A stretch of DNA of 60,958 nt, filler included. It is 4 parts of 4 records of this genome, joined end to end, with 100 filler letters (N's around TTAATTAATTAA, not from the genome) between each part and the next. Parts side by side here need not be neighbours in the genome. Positions count along the whole stretch, not along the records: positions 54,460 to 60,958 come from SRR31156797_2325; 3 more parts are not named here. One strand, 5' to 3'. Below the pieces are notes generated by a model. That model searched no databases. It was not told the DNA's origin and worked only from the letters and a program-made list of their open reading frames with translations. The translations under genes were made by a program, and so were the position numbers. Shown piece by piece: positions 9,463-60,958 of this stretch. Every line of letters begins with the position of its first letter. Within the stretch, counting starts at the first letter, position 1.

Positions 9463-9496
9463 TGTCTGACTCAAGGGAAATATGAGTTTTGGGCAT

Positions 9497-9704
9497 AAAA
9501 AAACACCGCCACATAGGGCGGTGCTAAATATTTGACAGACAGGTCAAAATAAATACAGGAAGTATAAGTTTTGTTCCAGGGGATAACTGCAACAAAACGG
9601 GTGGTAGAATTCTACCTAACTCGAAAACCGAGTATGCAAACACAACATCGTAATAATAAAGCCAATTGATTCAGAAGAATCAAGCCGTTCAGGCTCATAT
9701 TACG
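9497..9704 (-). ncRNA. gcvB: GcvB small regulatory RNA
   Basis: Minus strand contains GATGTTGTGTTTGCA (R1-like), ACTTCCTGTA (R2), CTGTCTGTC (R3) and terminator AGCACCGCC-CTATGT-GGCGGTG-T7; divergent from gcvA; 5' end inferred from the promoter. Confidence 0.92.
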
Positions 9705-15135: not shown

Positions 15136-15235
15136 NNNNNNNNNNNNNNNNNNNNNNNNNNNNNNNNNNNNNNNNNNNNTTAATTAATTAANNNNNNNNN
15201 NNNNNNNNNNNNNNNNNNNNNNNNNNNNNNNNNNN
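15136..15235. other. Artificial contig linker
   Basis: N44-TTAATTAATTAA-N44 (stops in all six frames); gene content and apparent taxonomy change across it. Confidence 0.97.
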
Positions 15236-40507: not shown

Positions 40508-40607
40508 NNNNNNNNNNNNNNNNNNNNNNNNNNNNNNNNNNNNNNNNNNNNTTAATTAATTAANNNNNNNNNNNNNNNNNNNNNNNNNNNNNNNNNNNNN
40601 NNNNNNN
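40508..40607. other. Artificial contig linker
   Basis: N44-TTAATTAATTAA-N44. Confidence 0.97.
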
Positions 40608-54359: not shown

Positions 54360-54459
54360 NNNNNNNNNNNNNNNNNNNNNNNNNNNNNNNNNNNNNNNNN
54401 NNNTTAATTAATTAANNNNNNNNNNNNNNNNNNNNNNNNNNNNNNNNNNNNNNNNNNNN
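54360..54459. other. Artificial contig linker
   Basis: N44-TTAATTAATTAA-N44. Confidence 0.97.
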
Positions 54460-54504
54460 CTAATGCAGCGGAAGTTGTATGAGATGATCAAGGGTGAACT
54501 GTGA
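54460..54504 (+). CDS. C-terminal fragment of an unidentified upstream gene
   Basis: Open frame from the contig edge: LMQRKLYEMIKGEL-stop. Confidence 0.4.
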   Translation, partial: LMQRKLYEMIKGEL

Positions 54505-54673
54505 TCGCCCTGGTGGGGCGCGCATCCCACATACGGTGTCACTGCTGCCAGGGCAGGCTCACCTCCAGGCTCGCGACTTTCCTGACGTTGGAACGGCCAT
54601 CATCATGGCAGCACTCGCCCATCTTTCATACAACCCTGGGCGGTAAAACAGAACGCATTCGTTTTTCCATTTC

Positions 54674-54771
54674 CCGGCGGAGAACCCCGGCTTCCCAACG
54701 AAGTCGGTGGCCCGCCGGTTGTTTCCGCGCGGCCACCGGCGGCATTGCCACAACCGGCACCGGATGCGCGG
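54674..54771 (+). promoter_or_regulatory. Structured 5' leader of the capsid gene
   Basis: Two hairpins sharing an ANAA-CC/GG-C internal loop, about 30 nt upstream of the AAGGAG RBS. Confidence 0.55.
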
Positions 54772-54813
54772 CCGAACGTAACAATTTCAATCCTAGACAA
54801 AGGAGAATGATGC

Positions 54814-55635
54814 ATGTCGACGGATGTCCATGAATCATTCGTCAAGCACTTCCAGGCCGAGGTTCATCTGCAATACCAGCAGATGGGATCGAAGCTGCGC
54901 AACACCGTGCGCACCAAGGACGGCATTGTCGGATCCTCGACGACCTTCCAGAAGGTCGGCAAGGGCACGGCGAGCACCAAGGCGCGCCACGGCAAGGTGC
55001 CGGTGATGAATGTCGACCACGAGCCGGTGGAATGCCAGCTCTACGACTATTACGCCGGAGACTGGGTGGACAAGCTTGACGAGTTGAAGACCAACATCAA
55101 CGAACAGCAGGTGGTTGCCAAGGCCGGGGCCTATGCGCTCGGCCGCAAGACCGACGAACTGATCGTTACCGAGTTGGAGACGAGCACCAACGACGCGGGC
55201 ACCGGAGCCGACGGCCTGACCAAGGCCAAGGTTCTGACCGCGTTCGAGATGCTCGGCGAGGCCGATGTTCCGGACGACGGCGACCGTTTCGCCATTGTCG
55301 GCTGGAAACAGTGGAGCGACCTTCTGGATATTCAGGAGTTCGCCAATGCCGATTACATTGGCGACGATCAGTTGCCGTGGAAGGGCACCCAGGCCAAGCG
55401 TTGGCTGGGCGCTCTGTGGATGCCGCATTCCGGCCTAATCAAGGACGGCAGCAACATCCGAAACTGCTACTGGTATCACAAGACGGCGGTCGGCCACGCG
55501 GTGGCGTCGGACGTGAAGACCGACATTTCCTGGCATGGCGATCGCGCCGCTCACTTTGTCAACAACATGATGAGCCAGGGCGCAAAAGCGGTCGATCCGA
55601 CCGGCATCGTGTGCATGCCCTGTCTTGAGACCTAG
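54814..55635 (+). CDS. Phage major capsid protein (small BPP-1/HTVC010P-like type)
   Basis: FVKHFQAEVHLQYQQMGSKLRNTV, AYALGRKTDELI, DVPDDGDR and MSQGAKAVD; AAGGAG RBS at 54800. Confidence 0.88.
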   Translation: MSTDVHESFVKHFQAEVHLQYQQMGSKLRNTVRTKDGIVGSSTTFQKVGKGTASTKARHGKVPVMNVDHEPVECQLYDYYAGDWVDKLDELKTNINEQQVVAKAGAYALGRKTDELIVTELETSTNDAGTGADGLTKAKVLTAFEMLGEADVPDDGDRFAIVGWKQWSDLLDIQEFANADYIGDDQLPWKGTQAKRWLGALWMPHSGLIKDGSNIRNCYWYHKTAVGHAVASDVKTDISWHGDRAAHFVNNMMSQGAKAVDPTGIVCMPCLET

Positions 55636-55646
55636 GAGGGCGGACA

Positions 55647-55916
55647 ATGCCATATCAATCGAAAGATCTGAGTGTGTTGGCCTATGCCAACGGTTTCACC
55701 CTTTGGCATTACACGACCGTGGATACGGCGGCTACGGTTGATACCGCCGGATATTTCAATAGTGCCAGTGACATGGTGCGGGTCGGTGACATGATCTTCG
55801 CCAACGTCGACACCGGCGGTACGCCTGGCGCCGGTATCTTTCTGGTGAACGCGAATGCGGCCGGTGTCGTCGACGTGGCCGATATCACCAGCATCGGTGC
55901 CGCCGATACCGACTGA
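55647..55916 (+). CDS. Probable capsid decoration/cement protein
   Basis: 89 aa directly after the capsid gene; LSVLAYANGFTLWHY...VDTAGYFN...VGDMI; GGAGGG RBS. Confidence 0.7.
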   Translation: MPYQSKDLSVLAYANGFTLWHYTTVDTAATVDTAGYFNSASDMVRVGDMIFANVDTGGTPGAGIFLVNANAAGVVDVADITSIGAADTD

Positions 55917-55959
55917 CGGCCGTTGAGTTCCAACGGCACCGTATTCTCCGTATTGCAAA

Positions 55960-55989
55960 GCCCCGCAGGTGAAAAAAAGCCTGCGGGGC
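55960..55989 (+). terminator. GC hairpin closing the head-gene transcript
   Basis: GCCCCGCAGG-N10-CCTGCGGGGC; no clean U-tract. Confidence 0.55.
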
Positions 55990-56084
55990 ACGCTATAAAT
56001 TAATTATTTCAATAGAATAATCAAATTTAACTATTTTTTGATTAATTTAATTCATTCCAAGATAAATTTCTCGGGAATGGCGAT

Positions 56085-56113
56085 AAAAATTAATCGGTAT
56101 TAAATTAATTTTT
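56085..56113. promoter_or_regulatory. Operator-like inverted repeat in the AT-rich head/tail spacer
   Basis: AAAAATTAAT-N9-ATTAATTTTT. Confidence 0.55.
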
Positions 56114-56174
56114 CCCCTCAAAGCTTGGGGCATGTGATCAGCCTTCACGGCATCGTCCAATATCAAGGAGAGAA

Positions 56175-56747
56175 ATGATGGCGCTAAGCAGCATTGCGCT
56201 TTGTTCGCGCGCGCTACTCAAAATTGGCGGAGAGACCATTACATCCTTCGACGAAGGTACCGCTGAAGCCGAGATCGCAGCCAATCTGTATCCAACCATC
56301 CGGGATGCGGTTTTATCGTTGCATCCTTGGAATTTCGCAACCGGGCAGGCAGTCCTGGCGAGGCTGACCGCGGAGCCGGTGGCGGACTATCTGTACGCAT
56401 ACCAGCTTCCCAGTGACACTCTTCGGGCAATCTCCGCCGGGAGTGATGGGCAGGGGCATGGAATCAGGTACAGAATTGCCGAAGGCCGATTGCACGCGGA
56501 TTCGACCGAAGTTGTTCTGACTTACATTTATAGACCGGCGGAAGAAGATTTTCCGCATTTCTTCGATCTGGCGCTGATTTCACGTTTGGCCAGCGAGTTC
56601 TGCATCCCGTTGACGGGAAGCACCAGCCGGGCCGAGACCTTGGGACGGATAGCCGATTCCGAGTTGCGCCGTGCCAAGTTGATTGATGCGCAACAGGAAA
56701 CACCCAATCGGATTGAAGACTTTACCTTAGTCGACGCGAGGAAGTGA
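56175..56747 (+). CDS. Tail tubular protein A / head-tail adaptor (T7 gp11-like)
   Basis: LCSRALLKIG, HPWNFA, YAYQLPSD and ALISRLASE; AAGGAG RBS. Confidence 0.82.
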   Translation: MMALSSIALCSRALLKIGGETITSFDEGTAEAEIAANLYPTIRDAVLSLHPWNFATGQAVLARLTAEPVADYLYAYQLPSDTLRAISAGSDGQGHGIRYRIAEGRLHADSTEVVLTYIYRPAEEDFPHFFDLALISRLASEFCIPLTGSTSRAETLGRIADSELRRAKLIDAQQETPNRIEDFTLVDARK

Positions 56748-58654
56748 TGCCTCACATACGTACCCAAAAGTCGAGCTTTTCGGGCGGCGAGGTTTCGCCC
56801 CTATTGCTGGGTCGAGGCGATCTGTCGGCCTACAGCAACGGGGCAATGAGATTGCGAAATGTCTTCGTACATCCGACAGGTGCCGTTTCGCGACGTGCTG
56901 GTCTGCGGTTTTTCGCGACGGCACAGGGGGCGGGACGGCTGGTCGCTTTCGAATTCAATACGGAGCAGGCCTATCTTCTGGCATTCAGCAACGAACAGGT
57001 CGATTTCTATCCGGATCCTGATTCCGAAACCCATCACGCATTGGCGACACCTTGGACCGCCGAGCAGATCGGACAGATTAACTGGACGCAGAGCGCCGAC
57101 ACGCTATTGGTCGTTCACCCCGATGTTCCCCCGAAAAAAGTCACCCGGAAGGACGACGGTACCTGGGAGATCGTCGATTGGTCCTTTTACGAGAAGGACG
57201 GAAAGATCTTTCAGCCCTATCATAAATTTGCCGACGACGAAGTAACGCTGACACCGAGCGGGACATCCGGCAACGTCACCATCACCGCGTCCGTCGACAT
57301 GTTCGATAGCCAACATGTCAACACGCGGTTCCGCATCCAAAAAAAAGAGGTCGAAATCACGGGGTTCACGTCGGCGACGCAGGTTTCCGCCACCACCAAG
57401 GAAAACCTCTCGTCCACAAGCGCCACCAAGGATTGGGAGGAGCAAGCCTTTTCCGATGTTCGCGGATGGCCGGTTTCCGTGACGTTCCATCAGGATCGCC
57501 TGGTGATCGGCGGATCTCGCGATTTACCAAATCGGCTCTGGCTGTCCAAATCGGCCGATCTTTTCAATTTCGATTTGGGTGAAGGGCTGGACGACGAGGC
57601 TATCGATTTCGCCATCCTGTCGGATCAGGTCAATGCGGTACGCGCCGTTTTTTCCGGTCGGCATTTGCAGGTTTTTACGTCGGGTGCCGAATGGATGGTC
57701 ACGGGGAACCCCCTTACCCCCGGCAATGTACAACTGAACCGTCAGACCCGAGTTGGGTCGCCGGTGGGCAGGACCGTGCCGCCGCGGGACGTCGACGGTG
57801 CAACCCTGTTTATTTCCAGAAACGGATCCGAGCTTCGCGAGTTTTTGTTTGCAGACATCGAGCAGGCCTATCAGGCTGCCGATCTGACCATGCTGGCGCG
57901 CCATATAGTCAACTCGCCGAGGGACATGGATTTCGACCCCCGCAAACGACTTATGCACTTGGTGATGGCCGACGGGACGATCGGTACCGTTACCGTCTAT
58001 CGAGCCGAGGAAGTGACCGCTTGGACCATACAGGAAACGCAGGGATATTTTCGGTCCGTCGCGGTGGTTGGCGATGAAACCTATGTGCTTGTCGAGCGCG
58101 ACAGCAGCTTCTTCATCGAAGTCTTCGACGATGTACTAAACGTCGACTCCGGACTTGATGGGTCGAGCGGCACCCCGCAAGACGAGTGGTCGGGACTGGA
58201 CCATATCGAAGGTCAATCGGTAAAGGTTCTGGCCGATGGCGCGGTGCGGGCGGACGCGCAGGTTGTTGGAGGAAAGCTAACACTGGATCCACCCGCTTCG
58301 TCGGTACAGATCGGGTTGGGGTTTACACACATTATCGAACCCCTGCCGTCCGCCCCGCTGGACGTCGGTGGAGCTAGCCAAGGCGGCAAAACCCGGCATA
58401 TTCAATCGACTTTCCGCCTTCACCATACCTCGGCGCTTAGCCTCGACACGGGACGCGGATTGGCGGAAATCCCCTTCAAGCGTTTCGGTGACGACACCCT
58501 TGATTCTCCACCGCCGGTGTTCACCGGCGACAAGACAGTCAGGGCATTCGGTTGGAAGACCTCCGGAACGGATCCCCTTTGGCGGATCGAACAGGATACG
58601 CCTTTGCCGTTTACGCTTCTTTCCGTCAGTACGGAAATCAGCGCCAACGACTGA
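56747..58654 (+). CDS. Tail tubular protein B / nozzle (T7 gp12, P22 gp10-like)
   Basis: SFSGGEVSP, GAVSRRAG, WTQSAD, GWPVSVTFHQDRL and C-terminal QDTPLPFTLLSV; TGATG overlap (ATG 56747, or GTG 56744). Confidence 0.87.
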   Translation: MPHIRTQKSSFSGGEVSPLLLGRGDLSAYSNGAMRLRNVFVHPTGAVSRRAGLRFFATAQGAGRLVAFEFNTEQAYLLAFSNEQVDFYPDPDSETHHALATPWTAEQIGQINWTQSADTLLVVHPDVPPKKVTRKDDGTWEIVDWSFYEKDGKIFQPYHKFADDEVTLTPSGTSGNVTITASVDMFDSQHVNTRFRIQKKEVEITGFTSATQVSATTKENLSSTSATKDWEEQAFSDVRGWPVSVTFHQDRLVIGGSRDLPNRLWLSKSADLFNFDLGEGLDDEAIDFAILSDQVNAVRAVFSGRHLQVFTSGAEWMVTGNPLTPGNVQLNRQTRVGSPVGRTVPPRDVDGATLFISRNGSELREFLFADIEQAYQAADLTMLARHIVNSPRDMDFDPRKRLMHLVMADGTIGTVTVYRAEEVTAWTIQETQGYFRSVAVVGDETYVLVERDSSFFIEVFDDVLNVDSGLDGSSGTPQDEWSGLDHIEGQSVKVLADGAVRADAQVVGGKLTLDPPASSVQIGLGFTHIIEPLPSAPLDVGGASQGGKTRHIQSTFRLHHTSALSLDTGRGLAEIPFKRFGDDTLDSPPPVFTGDKTVRAFGWKTSGTDPLWRIEQDTPLPFTLLSVSTEISAND

Positions 58655-58813
58655 GATCCGATCATGCCGTTCAGTCACGTCCTTTGGGACCGGCAACAGC
58701 GGATTCGACCGTAATAAAGTTCCCTATGAATCGATCACCTCTTTGGCCTGTTCCAATCAGGAACTGTTGGCGGCGGCCTCTGCCTGAAGACAATTTTTTA
58801 AGGAGATCAAAAG

Positions 58814-59257
58814 ATGGCTGGGATCGATCCCATTTCACTTGTTTCTTCGGTGCTGATGTTTCAGCAGCAGCGTCAACGGGAGAAGGCACAGGCAGCCGTG
58901 GCGGAAGCGGAGGCCGCTTCACAAACTCGGCGGATCAAGGTCGAGCAAGATAACCAGGAACGTCGGCAACGGGATCGCCTGAAAAAGGCATTGGCGACTC
59001 AACGCGCCCGTTATGGAGCATCGGGTATTGGCGGCGTTGGCGGTTCGAGCAGGGCTCTGCTCCAAGGGTTTGTCGACGAGACCGAAGAAGGTATCGAAGA
59101 CATGCGCAAATCCAACCAAATTCGCATCGACGATATCTATCGCAACCTCGGTTCCCGCCGCCGCAAAAGCCTTCTCGAAAAAAGAAGCGCTGCTACGGGT
59201 TTGGCGACGGACCTTTGGCGCCAGGGGGCGAGAACGATCTCGCTTCTCGATCGTTAA
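58814..59257 (+). CDS. Small internal virion/ejection protein (gp14-like)
   Basis: Ala/Gln-rich helical sequence with ATQRARYGASGI motif; follows the nozzle gene; AAGGAG RBS. Confidence 0.62.
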   Translation: MAGIDPISLVSSVLMFQQQRQREKAQAAVAEAEAASQTRRIKVEQDNQERRQRDRLKKALATQRARYGASGIGGVGGSSRALLQGFVDETEEGIEDMRKSNQIRIDDIYRNLGSRRRKSLLEKRSAATGLATDLWRQGARTISLLDR

Positions 59258-59279
59258 CGGGAAGAAAGGAACTCATCAA

Positions 59280-60209
59280 ATGTCCGAACATATAAAGATC
59301 AGCGCCGAAAGACCCTGGGTGCAGGTATTCGGAGATGGAACGAAAACGGATTTTCTCTTCGATTTCCCGATCTTCAAAAATTCCGATCTAGAAGTGTACC
59401 TCGATGGTGTTATTCAAACCCTCGACAGCGACTATGAACTGGGGGAACAGGACGCTGGTAATTCCGATGGCGGTACCGTGAAATTCCTGAAAGGTGCCCC
59501 AGTCGCCGACATGGCCATTACCATGCGCCGGCGGCTGAAAATCCAGCGCACGACGGACTTTCAGGAATCGGGCGAATTCCGCGCCAAGGTAATCAATGAT
59601 GAGTTGGATTATCAAACTGCGGCGATCCAACAAATCGCTGACGATGTAACGCGGACGTTGACACTGGCTCCGACCGACCCGGACGCGTCGCTGTCGCTTC
59701 CGGAAAAATCCGAGCGGGCGGAAAAATTCCTTTGGTTCGACGCGGAAGGCAACTTGGTCATCGCGTCGGGCTTGGCGAGCGTCGCGGTCAGTGGCGTCAT
59801 GGCGCCGGTGGTTGCAGCGGCGACCCTTGAAGCGGCCCTCGAGGCACTTGATCCGGACATCCTGAAGGCAGATGAGCCGGGCACCCTGTCCGTCGGCATG
59901 GGCCAGGAGTGGCACGATCTTGAAAGCACTGGCGCTGGATCGATTACGCCGCTGATTGCCAATTCGAATCGGCAAAAAGGAACCGTCACCGGCAGCTTCA
60001 CCCTGAACGATCCGGAGGATTGCGACGGGTCCGTGACAATCAAATTCACCAACGATGGCGCCGGCCCGCACAGCCCGACCTTCTCCGGGTTTTCGCCGAC
60101 CTTGCTGCCGGGCTCAAAAGCCTGGGACGCCACCGACGACGCCATCAATTGGGTGGTCATTCAGCGCGAAGGCGGCACCAGCTATTACGGGATCTACAAC
60201 GATGCATGA
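59280..60209 (+). CDS. Short tail fibre/adaptor with T7 gp17-like N-terminal domain
   Basis: ATG 59280 after AAAGGA; GDGTKTDFLFDFPIF...DLEVYLDG...RTTDFQESGEFRAKVINDELD. Confidence 0.82.
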   Translation: MSEHIKISAERPWVQVFGDGTKTDFLFDFPIFKNSDLEVYLDGVIQTLDSDYELGEQDAGNSDGGTVKFLKGAPVADMAITMRRRLKIQRTTDFQESGEFRAKVINDELDYQTAAIQQIADDVTRTLTLAPTDPDASLSLPEKSERAEKFLWFDAEGNLVIASGLASVAVSGVMAPVVAAATLEAALEALDPDILKADEPGTLSVGMGQEWHDLESTGAGSITPLIANSNRQKGTVTGSFTLNDPEDCDGSVTIKFTNDGAGPHSPTFSGFSPTLLPGSKAWDATDDAINWVVIQREGGTSYYGIYNDA

Positions 60210-60958
60210 TTACCTGAAATATAACGACCTGCACGGCCCGCGCCTGTGTACGCTCTTGCCGGAAGATCTGTTTCCGTTTTTGGCGGGCGCTAGCTCTTCG
60301 GCCTACCTGATCGGCGCGTCCGGCAAGTTCTCCGTCGCTGCTGATCCACGGCTTGTTTTCGAACAGACCCTGGCAGGCGACACCAAAAAGGTAATTATCG
60401 ATTTCTGGTGTCAACGGAGCGAGCTAAACGTCGCTTCGCGACTGTTGGATATCCACGTCGGCTCCGGCAACTTTGCGTGGATTGGGTTTTATGCGGGTGG
60501 CGAACTTCAAATTGCACAGTATTCGTCAACATACGACTATAGCTACGTCACGACGCAAACATTCACCGATCCGAATGCTTTCATGCATTTTCGCTTCGAG
60601 ATCGACACCGATGCAGCGTCTGGCGAGCGAGTAAAAATCTACCATAATGAAGAAAGAATTACCGATTTCGGGACGGAAACAGAACCAACTTCCGGCCTAA
60701 CAATTGACTGGAATGCCATCGGTCGGTTTGTCGTCGGGGCGCGGTGGACAGGGAGCTATTACGAGACGCCGTTTGGGGGCTATATAAGCCAATTTATAAA
60801 GCTCGATGGCCAAATGATCGGGGAAACGACTGAAGCGGACGTCAACGGATATTTAATGCCGGTTAATCCGTCCGGTCTGACGTTCGGTACCAACGGTTTC
60901 TGGCTTGATTTTGAAGACCATGCCAGCGTTACAAACCTGTGCCTTTATTCGGAAGCTG
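60202..60958 (+). CDS. LamG/concanavalin A-like receptor-binding protein, 3'-truncated; not in the ORF track
   Basis: Hand translation is stop-free from ATG 60202 to the window end: MHDYLKYND...IDFWCQRS...FTDPNAFMHF...FGGYISQF...PSGLTFGTNGFWLDF. Confidence 0.8.
   Translation, partial: MHDYLKYNDLHGPRLCTLLPEDLFPFLAGASSSAYLIGASGKFSVAADPRLVFEQTLAGDTKKVIIDFWCQRSELNVASRLLDIHVGSGNFAWIGFYAGGELQIAQYSSTYDYSYVTTQTFTDPNAFMHFRFEIDTDAASGERVKIYHNEERITDFGTETEPTSGLTIDWNAIGRFVVGARWTGSYYETPFGGYISQFIKLDGQMIGETTEADVNGYLMPVNPSGLTFGTNGFWLDFEDHASVTNLCLYSEA

Follow-up and report, generated by a model that had tools for sequence, protein, structure and literature searches.

What kind of genetic element does the last contig of this stretch of DNA represent? 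The window, that is, the whole stretch analysed, of 60,958 bases, is made up of four contigs of 15,135, 25,272, 13,752 and 6,499 bases, with artificial joints of the form N44-TTAATTAATTAA-N44 at positions 15136–15235, 40508–40607 and 54360–54459; the feature under study is the entire fourth contig, 54460–60958. It carries a set of podoviral virion genes, which the original prediction took for a host-regulated, gene transfer agent (GTA)-like particle in an alphaproteobacterium. Comparison with its relatives indicates that the contig very probably belongs to a family of elements kept by their bacterial hosts. The best overall explanation, to which we give an even chance, is a host-kept, GTA-like, podovirus-derived locus with this contig as its middle third; on a GTA function of the particles, judged from the genes, the scales are level.

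ORF (open reading frame) and family searches agree with the predicted gene list and coordinates: capsid, decoration protein, adaptor, nozzle, a small protein, fibre and lectin, all on the plus strand. The major capsid protein (273 amino acids (aa); 54814–55635) matches PF19821 (Phage_capsid_2) over residues 6–272 of 273 with 282.2 bits (E = 5.8e-84), passing the gathering cut-off of 25 bits, as well as phrog_3437 (4e-70) and the major capsid protein of the Legionella phage LME-1 (9eg4_A; E = 2.5e-27). It is 65–87% identical to chromosomal and IMG/VR copies. The next gene (55647–55916) encodes an 89-aa protein (LSVLAYANGFTLWHY) whose only family match is phrog_18004 (1.7e-22) and whose alignment with 37 homologues has 25 invariant columns. 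Its predicted model, with a mean pLDDT of 79.3, has as its best solved match the LME-1 capsid chain 9eg4_H, at a TM score of 0.62 and a Foldseek E-value of 8.6e-3, which exceeds the tool's 0.001 line. According to the LME-1 report, 9eg4_H is a trimeric head decoration protein, encoded directly after the capsid gene (PMC12407071). Because the fold match is joined by an equal gene position, the label of putative head decoration protein is reasonable.

The adaptor (tail tubular protein A, gp11-like; 190 aa; 56175–56747) matches phrog_394 (3.7e-49), the LME-1 adaptor 9efk_T (3.2e-6) and 8ck1_E, a ‘Connector Protein’ (2.5e-5). Its stop codon is overlapped by the start of the nozzle gene (tail tubular protein B, gp12-like; 636 aa; 56744–58654), the product of which matches phrog_376 (1.3e-149), the ‘Tail Nozzle’ 8ck1_A (2.2e-60) and LME-1 orf18, 9efk_M (1.2e-32). 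A candidate internal virion protein of 147 aa (58814–59257) is encoded by the sole gene between nozzle and fibre on the contig. The short tail fibre (309 aa; 59280–60209) has a T7-type N-terminal tail-attachment domain, with matches to phrog_1640 (1.5e-21) and, under the Pfam cut-off, to PF03906 (7.6e-4). The last ORF (60202–60958), open at the contig end, contributes 252 aa from the N terminus of another tail or receptor-binding protein with a ConA-like lectin domain; it matches phrog_19943 (1.5e-11). The gene at this position in G322, which is among the closest whole-genome relatives (capsid identity 84.6%), encodes 782 aa with Laminin_G_3 and DUF7483 (9.8e-80) domains and matches the tail fibre family phrog_24898; the last ORF is probably the first third of a tail protein of about 780 aa with the same two domains.

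Most of these genes are intact, as had been claimed, with two amendments: the last ORF runs off the contig and the fibre start codon is now placed at 59280. Strong ribosome-binding sites had been described throughout, and AGGAG-like sites precede six of the seven starts. The names ‘internal protein’ and ‘lectin’ are less secure, the first resting on a weak match to phrog_418 (9.6e-6) and the second on a match to PF13385 (Laminin_G_3; 3.5e-5) that again lies under the Pfam cut-off. Adaptor, nozzle and fibre on the contig, together with a portal (PF12236), a scaffold (PF05396) and a T7-type large terminase in relatives, constitute a T7-like virion module. With such virion genes, the proposal of a podoviral lineage distinct from RcGTA, the siphovirus-like agent of Rhodobacter capsulatus, holds good.

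At least 562 relatives of the capsid are present in a contig collection with one genome per species, and the best 80 of them, at 69–84% identity, are almost all labelled as Rhodospirillales-type; close homologues in many Rhodospirillales chromosomes had been anticipated. In the order around Caenispirillum, 221 of the 395 genomes have a capsid match (202 at E ≤ 1e-99; 200 as a single match), and in the order around Azospirillum a match at or below 1e-60 occurs in 105 of 130. Prevalence is thus 51–81% of species, and capsid presence and E-values come in blocks along the genome listing. The order capsid, 89-aa protein, adaptor, nozzle, (small protein), fibre is identical in nearly all of 160 loci. 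Identity of the contig to L001/L272 is 87% for the capsid, 79% for the adaptor and 76% for the nozzle; that locus has the full gene set and ends beside gcrA.

Full copies show what lies to either side of the genes on the contig. The left arm comprises a divergent helix–turn–helix and S24 CI-like repressor, two small proteins, a T7-type portal, a Bbp19-like protein and a T7-type scaffold; the right arm comprises variable fibres, a likely small terminase (phrog_31793, a family of unassigned function, placed solely by its position just before the large terminase), the T7-type large terminase, two small proteins that are possibly lysis proteins, and an endolysin. The 47 loci with 10-kb flanks share one gene order, with capsid in 47, portal, scaffold and adaptor each in 42, nozzle in 40, large terminase (terL) in 37 and repressor in 32; some of the missing genes lie past the 10-kb flank or behind insertions. 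Compact copies span about 12–13 kb, and loci range up to about 19 kb, that of G322, in which an insertion parts scaffold from capsid, covering 18.6 kb. Domains at the receptor-binding end vary widely among copies and include collagen, F5/8-C, RCC1, SPRY and DUF7483.

The original prediction had set portal and terminase against integrase and replication genes as the content to look for beyond the contig. In the relatives the former were found; the latter, and att sites, were not. Pfam and PHROGs searches recognised neither integrase nor replication genes in L103, L127, L155 and L114, and Pfam recognised none among 69 non-core ORFs of 11 long IMG/VR contigs (75 ORFs from 12 contigs, less six of L075, a near twin of L073); these 69 are host-like cargo, peptidoglycan-binding proteins and fibre variants. 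No PF00589 match lies inside the element in five of five genomes, the nearest being 7 kb off, beyond the host gcrA, in a search that did not specifically cover serine recombinases. A tblastn search for an L058-type integrase, a weak test, gave none in 47 loci, and flanking direct repeats of att type were found in none of three loci (L103, L106 and L122). Capsid, portal and terminase are each single copy in five of five genomes.

This gene content bears on the notion of a phage satellite, resembling the capsid-forming phage-inducible chromosomal islands (cf-PICIs), which would need a helper for replication or for missing parts. The small size of the compact 13-kb copies and the want of replication genes and large ejection proteins speak for it. 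Capsid-forming satellites, however, have an integrase and their own replication initiator and no tail genes, whereas the element has its own tail, terminase and lysis genes, and no integrase, primase-replicase or att repeats were found in it; its fixed chromosomal address and co-divergence with the host are further points against. We regard a satellite as scarcely credible.

The claim of vertical inheritance was examined through the relatives, by comparison with RpoB in 40 genomes that have a listed capsid and rpoB, spread over the presence blocks and not picked by result. RpoB is a single marker, and related genomes are not independent points. The Mantel correlation with RpoB distance is 0.717 for the capsid (n = 40), 0.763 for the nozzle (n = 31) and 0.738 for the adaptor (n = 36), each with p = 1e-4. 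Capsid distance climbs from 0.012 at RpoB distances below 0.02 to 0.27 at those above 0.20, and among the 40 genomes there is no pair with an RpoB distance over 0.14 and a capsid distance under 0.14. Trees of the concatenated element genes and of RpoB for 31 genomes have 20 of 28 bipartitions in common; 2000 label shuffles gave 0.23 shared bipartitions on average and 3 at most. Synonymous divergence (dS) of the capsid gene is within about 1.5-fold of that of rpoB in 12 of 17 neighbouring pairs, for example 0.34 versus 0.32, 0.48 versus 0.41 and 0.99 versus 0.95, and the GC content at third codon positions follows the host (r = 0.76 for capsid, 0.81 for nozzle). As a separate observation on the marker gene, 16 of 40 high-GC genomes (L201–L240) have an uninterrupted reading frame on the strand opposite rpoB that runs the full length of the gene, about 1375 codons.

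The chromosomal surroundings also recur. In 18 loci, among them those of Caenispirillum, Terasakiella, Roseospirillum and Algihabitans, the repressor has a class-IV aminotransferase gene as its immediate neighbour; pyrD is on the right-hand side in six, with a seventh match upstream of the capsid, and a NUDIX gene is in the flank of 12. Just past the lysis genes, gcrA is found in 9 of 47 loci and in L272, and it is 4.5 kb away in G322; it is single in all five genomes tested and adjoins the element in three of them. Together with the tree and distance comparisons, these flanks leave vertical inheritance of the family well supported. For the contig it would hold by homology, through its 87% capsid identity to L272.

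These results have to be set against the simplest alternative, that the contig is from an ordinary temperate or lytic podophage or a recent prophage and its chromosomal look-alikes are lysogens of a successful host-specific phage lineage. The 6.5 kb visible are all virion genes, their GC content and tetranucleotides are unlike those of the window neighbours, and true phages, LME-1, the Pelagibacter phage EXVC031P Hodr and Vibrio podophages, share the module. Yet in the phage collection capsid identity reaches 58.8% at most, and the best cultured phage, Hodr, stands at 45%; at the DNA level the same collection yields one record, covering 12% of the query at 65.6% identity. All the closer relatives examined are in host DNA without integrase or replication genes. 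IMG/VR holds 329 capsid relatives, a point in favour of a phage, but many of the long contigs start at the repressor, which suggests that they are cut-out provirus predictions. The prevalence in mostly single copy, the host-like dS and the recurrent flanks argue against it, and we consider this alternative quite improbable. The 58.8% match, MT838907.1, is an unannotated 5-kb ‘Bacteriophage sp.’ from human faecal samples, closer than any cultured phage, which suggests that gut relatives of the family exist.

The GC contents of the four contigs, in order, are 44.8, 42.0, 52.5 and 55.9%, and the tetranucleotide profile of contig 4 correlates with those of contigs 1–3 at 0.11, 0.17 and 0.35. Because the window joins four contigs with differing profiles, the neighbours are no context for one another, and what lies to the left of the joint at 54360–54459 is other, unrelated contigs. 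Contig 1 contains a GcvB RNA (window 9495–9703, minus strand; 101.6 bits for a gathering score of 42), and since GcvB is a gammaproteobacterial small RNA, this contig at least is not alphaproteobacterial. The window therefore offers no evidence for the predicted alphaproteobacterial host: contig 4 is a separate contig joined to three unrelated ones, and its host cannot be read from them.

Are the chromosomal copies functional, or are they a decaying prophage remnant, without present function and kept by chance or hitch-hiking? Some copies look damaged, insertions interrupt the locus in many genomes, and 44% of the genomes in one order are without the element; given the damaged-looking copies, it is being lost in some lineages. 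On the other side, element genes are under purifying selection: in the closest pairs the ratio of non-synonymous to synonymous change (omega) of the capsid is 0.018–0.066, similar to that of RpoB, with values up to 0.33 in high-GC pairs. Capsid frames are intact among the matches listed, with no internal stop in the 150 match rows listed of about 250 from the Caenispirillum order. Split loci keep portal, capsid and terminase genes intact; thus, in Azospirillum endophyticum the host genes fur and sodC lie ahead of the capsid, and an intact portal is on another contig. Conservation extends to the non-coding leader motifs described below. A functionless remnant is, in our judgement, very unlikely.

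Several observations nevertheless weigh against a host-kept, GTA-like locus. Particle production, packaging and transfer are predictions from gene content. The contig is without host flank, portal, terminase or repressor, so that its own chromosomal residence is inferred, and many copies are classed as viral in IMG/VR. Nor is the element universal: in the Caenispirillum order, 174 of the 395 genomes have no capsid match. Five of the 17 pairs depart more than 1.5-fold in dS, the capsid value being higher in G076/G089 (0.76 versus 0.27) and in three Terasakiella-block pairs, and lower in G322/G324 (0.23 versus 0.42). Among 107 Azospirillum-order capsid rows, one has an internal TGA and three are truncated (G426, G402, G469 and G471), and the closely related L105 and L115 lack any nozzle match. 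Two genomes, G173 (C10 and C136) and G186 (C45 and C54), carry two full capsid copies, 68–70% identical to the query, on different contigs; duplication, acquisition for a second time or mixed bins could account for them. Prophages, too, have variable fibres and cargo insertions, and an S24 CI-like repressor with LexA control is the equipment of ordinary prophages and of the Bacillus PBSX element. Finally, the head of the solved relative is T=7 and about 60 nm across, and phage relatives carry 32–35 kb; for these two reasons the head may hold the whole 13–19 kb locus, unlike that of RcGTA.

The spacers between the gene blocks provide a second line of evidence. They measure 309, 258 and 159 nucleotides (nt), against 310, 258 and 159 nt in the original prediction, which had taken them as unlike those of phages. 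That argument is weak, as T7-type phages normally have a gap behind the capsid gene; in T7 itself the main terminator directly follows gene 10. Regulatory-looking structure had been claimed for the first two spacers, and folding bears it out for the second only.

The first, the capsid leader (54505–54813, plus strand), folds no better than shuffled sequences (z = -1.24; 14 of 100), and its candidacy as a structured RNA is rejected on this score; its conservation resides in sequence motifs. Of 153 leaders, 94 have the word GGAYAACY about 136 nt upstream of the capsid start, for a background of 0.031 per 400 nt, and 77 have CCAYAACC at about 62 nt, for a background of 0.023; each is more than 20-fold over background. 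On the contig both stand at the canonical distances, as GGAGAACC at 54679–54686, with G where the pattern has T or C, and CCACAACC at 54748–54755. In several relatives the two words are separated by a hairpin that has a T run. The leader keeps a length of 200–380 nt whatever lies upstream, be it scaffold, inserted genes or host genes. On the contig, the gene ahead of it is represented by the last 14 codons and stop of an ORF (...LMQRKLYEMIKGEL*; 54460–54504, plus strand) that is not the scaffold gene: scaffold C-termini of relatives read ...MRDPRYWRDRDPA.V.KVR.GF..LY, and the ORF ending at 54504 differs. A foreign gene or a split therefore parts scaffold from capsid here, as it does in L272, G322 and many other loci.

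The second spacer (55917–56174, plus strand) folds far better than its shuffles (z = -6.3; 0 of 200). It contains a hairpin at 55919–55937, an 11-bp GC-rich hairpin at 55960–55989 and, at about 55994–56113, some 120 nt of AT-rich sequence with repeated RTTAATY words. In the closest relatives the decoration–adaptor spacer likewise has a hairpin resembling a terminator, in many cases with a T run, and behind it AT-rich DNA, and RTTAATY is present in 23 of 138 tubA upstream regions, at 0.37 per sequence for a background of 0.035. From these features the spacer reads as a putative partial terminator with an internal promoter, or a binding region for a regulator, behind it. The third spacer (58655–58813, plus strand) has no feature above chance. 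Scans of the whole contig gave one site resembling a sigma-70 promoter for 3.0 expected and ten resembling intrinsic terminators for 7.5 expected, neither count being above chance and none of the sites sense-oriented inside the spacers; an Rfam scan returned nothing significant, with YenS alone below threshold (E = 0.053), and CtrA-type TTAA-N7-TTAA boxes are lacking from the contig. Separately, the Telmatospirillum copy contains a sequence of about 110 nt (73 + 41 nt, 77–80% identical) twice, before the scaffold region (L122:7488–7599) and in the decoration–adaptor spacer (L122:11210–11320), possibly a promoter or regulatory cassette present in duplicate, or else a repetitive extragenic palindromic (REP)-like element.

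The spacers matter as the sites at which relatives carry insertions or at which the locus is split between chromosomal sites. The decoration–adaptor gap exceeds 700 nt in 37 of 132 loci, with up to 7.8 kb of inserted genes, and the inter-block spacers are insertion hot spots. The blocks may be semi-independent transcription units. Host-like cargo between blocks includes an ODP metallo-beta-lactamase-fold protein, a glutathione S-transferase, a radical SAM protein and a RelA/SpoT-domain protein (sites L012:6947–8869, L015:4543–6483, L019:4496–5140, L073:6918–7952 and L012:17283–18596).

Host regulation had been predicted as well. The repressor/operon promoter region is absent from contig 4, and regulation is predicted from relatives. 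Of 64 repressor/operon intergenic regions, 32 contain GTTC-N7-GTTC, which we take to be the alphaproteobacterial LexA box, and seven more have it in reverse orientation, for a background of 0.009 per region. In six regions inspected, any box present follows a TTGAC-like word and stands a short way ahead of the first operon gene. Because the LexA-type box occurs together with an S24 repressor, the arrangement points to SOS induction. Host-type control is suggested by these boxes; the element also keeps its own CI-like repressor, as prophages do.

The same control is central to the main rival, a locus that is likewise kept by the host and SOS-induced but makes killer particles, like PBSX or a tailocin with a head, which would attach to competing strains and damage them; any DNA packaged would be incidental. 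The PBSX-type defective Bacillus prophages are SOS-inducible, repressor-controlled and myovirus-like, belong to Firmicutes, and kill rather than transfer; LexA boxes with an S24 repressor are the pattern of PBSX and pyocins. Like the element, they are host-conserved and do not propagate, being released by lysis; there is no sequence relationship between the two. PBSX packages host DNA in 13.4-kb fragments (PMC12946183). A killer particle fits as well as GTA function does, and the highly variable receptor-binding end and the absence of large ejection proteins after the nozzle agree with it. Keeping a terminase pair, portal and scaffold under purifying selection would, however, be costly if DNA were irrelevant, and no immunity or toxin gene was recognised; nor are killing and transfer mutually exclusive. 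We hold a dedicated killer to be unlikely but not negligible.

Which virus, then, gave rise to the locus? The nearest solved structure is that of LME-1 (9eg4/9efk), with the same gene order of capsid, decoration, adaptor, nozzle ... fibre; LME-1 differs in being an infectious temperate phage with internal virion proteins between nozzle and fibre (PMC12407071), and in its low sequence identity to the element. The closest cultured phages are HTVC010P-type pelagiphages (Hodr) and Vibrio podophages of about 32 kb (K411), at 45% and 31% capsid identity; they have an equal late-gene order, and in Hodr an 81-aa gene follows the capsid gene. As described in the pelagiphage report (PMC8477408), HTVC010P-type genomes of 32–35 kb have seven core genes (nuclease, tail tubes B and A, major capsid protein, capsid assembly protein, head–tail connector and TerL) and an early replication region, subgroup II has an integrase, and the best homologue of a pelagiphage TerL is in a Rhodospirillaceae genome. 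The six structural and packaging core genes have counterparts in the element, no search having been aimed at the nuclease; the early/replication region was, in contrast, not found in chromosomal element copies.

A difference of possible functional weight concerns ejection. After the nozzle gene, Vibrio phage K411 encodes proteins of 172, 713, 1049 and 880 aa, and the large ones are absent from the element: the nozzle–fibre distances of relatives leave no room for large core/ejection proteins (gp15/gp16-like) after the nozzle, and none occurs in the compact 12–13 kb loci. It may be speculated by analogy that delivery stops short of the cytoplasm, as in RcGTA. A peptidoglycan-binding-domain protein of 295–737 aa recurs between scaffold and capsid in several relatives (L242:2109–4175, minus strand; L012:4624–6108; L006:3891–6104; L005:4250–5962; L019:5173–6060), being 494–737 aa long in some loci; it could travel in the virion and serve in wall degradation or ejection, in part taking the place of the missing core proteins.

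Among known GTAs, the RcGTA type (Rhodobacter capsulatus, Caulobacter; Rhodogtaviriformidae) provides the closest parallel in life style. It too consists of clusters in alphaproteobacterial chromosomes that hold head, tail, terminase and lysis genes but neither integrase nor replication genes; the clusters are inherited vertically, purifying selection acts on them, and some lineages have them distributed over two or more chromosomal sites. One relative of the contig encodes a holin of the Pfam family GTA_holin_3TM (L015:15442–15828; E = 1.3e-10), a family named after RcGTA release. RcGTA is, however, siphovirus-like, whereas the element is T7-like with a PF19821 capsid, and RcGTA is controlled by CtrA, GafA and quorum sensing, not by SOS, whereas control of the element appears to lie with LexA and a CI-like repressor. 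Packaging and transfer are proven for RcGTA; the element is known here from its genes. The RcGTA head is small, oblate and T=3, holding about 4 kb (PMC12946183).

A podoviral GTA would not be unprecedented, because the FpGTA of Faecalibacterium, a compact operon conserved across a genus, is claimed in the same source as the first podovirus-like GTA-like element (PMC12946183). It belongs to Firmicutes and has operons of 10.5 and 5.5 kb and packaged fragments of 8.4–8.9 kb, by which description, and by that only, it is set apart from the element (PMC12946183). Mitomycin-induced Azospirillum particles with about 10 kb of DNA have been read as GTAs and tied to RcGTA-like genes (PMC3899980); no connection of these particles with the element was found. 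Literature searches found no description of the element.

The host-kept, GTA-like locus would then work as follows. A T7-like podovirus without an RNA polymerase, of LME-1 or HTVC010P type, would have been fixed as a chromosomal locus of 13–19 kb in an ancestor of the Rhodospirillales-type alphaproteobacteria and passed on vertically since; the contig would be its capsid block and tail block. DNA damage would take host LexA off the GTTC-N7-GTTC box at the operon promoter, and the S24 repressor would cleave itself. The blocks would be transcribed semi-independently: the regulatory and portal–scaffold genes, the capsid and decoration genes behind the conserved leader, and the tail genes behind the hairpin and AT-rich promoter region. 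A T=7-like head with a short tail would be assembled and filled by the terminase, and cell lysis would follow. Because the locus cannot replicate or integrate, the packaged DNA would most likely be host DNA, offered to kin in the fashion of a GTA. A DNA-filled particle released by lysis is the economical reading, since portal, scaffold, terminase, tail, fibre and lysis genes are kept under purifying selection without replication or integration.

A more specific history is possible, though we put it forward tentatively and on the doubtful side: an ancient, independently domesticated T7-like GTA, fixed beside the cell-cycle gene gcrA in an early Rhodospirillales-type ancestor, retained by the majority of species in at least two orders, triggered by the SOS response and with its ejection proteins lost, would carry random host DNA only as far as the recipient periplasm, uptake depending on the recipient. 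By analogy, such periplasm-limited delivery would be a mechanistic parallel to RcGTA reached from a different virus family.

Taken alone, the contig contributes hardly more than a further partial member; the value lies in the family. The idea is open to direct test in cultured carriers, namely Terasakiella pusilla DSM 6293, Defluviicoccus vanus Ben 114, Caenispirillum salinarum AK4, Roseospirillum parvum 930I and Marivibrio halodurans, together with Azospirillum species. Known GTAs are a handful, and the alphaproteobacterial ones come from siphovirus-like (RcGTA) or other long-tailed ancestors; here there would be a second, podovirus-derived particle locus kept over order-level time spans. If this is true, the domestication of phage particles would be recurrent, there would be a GTA-like case controlled by DNA damage and not by cell-cycle or quorum signals, and many ‘prophages’ in Rhodospirillales and Azospirillum genomes and in IMG/VR would need re-labelling.

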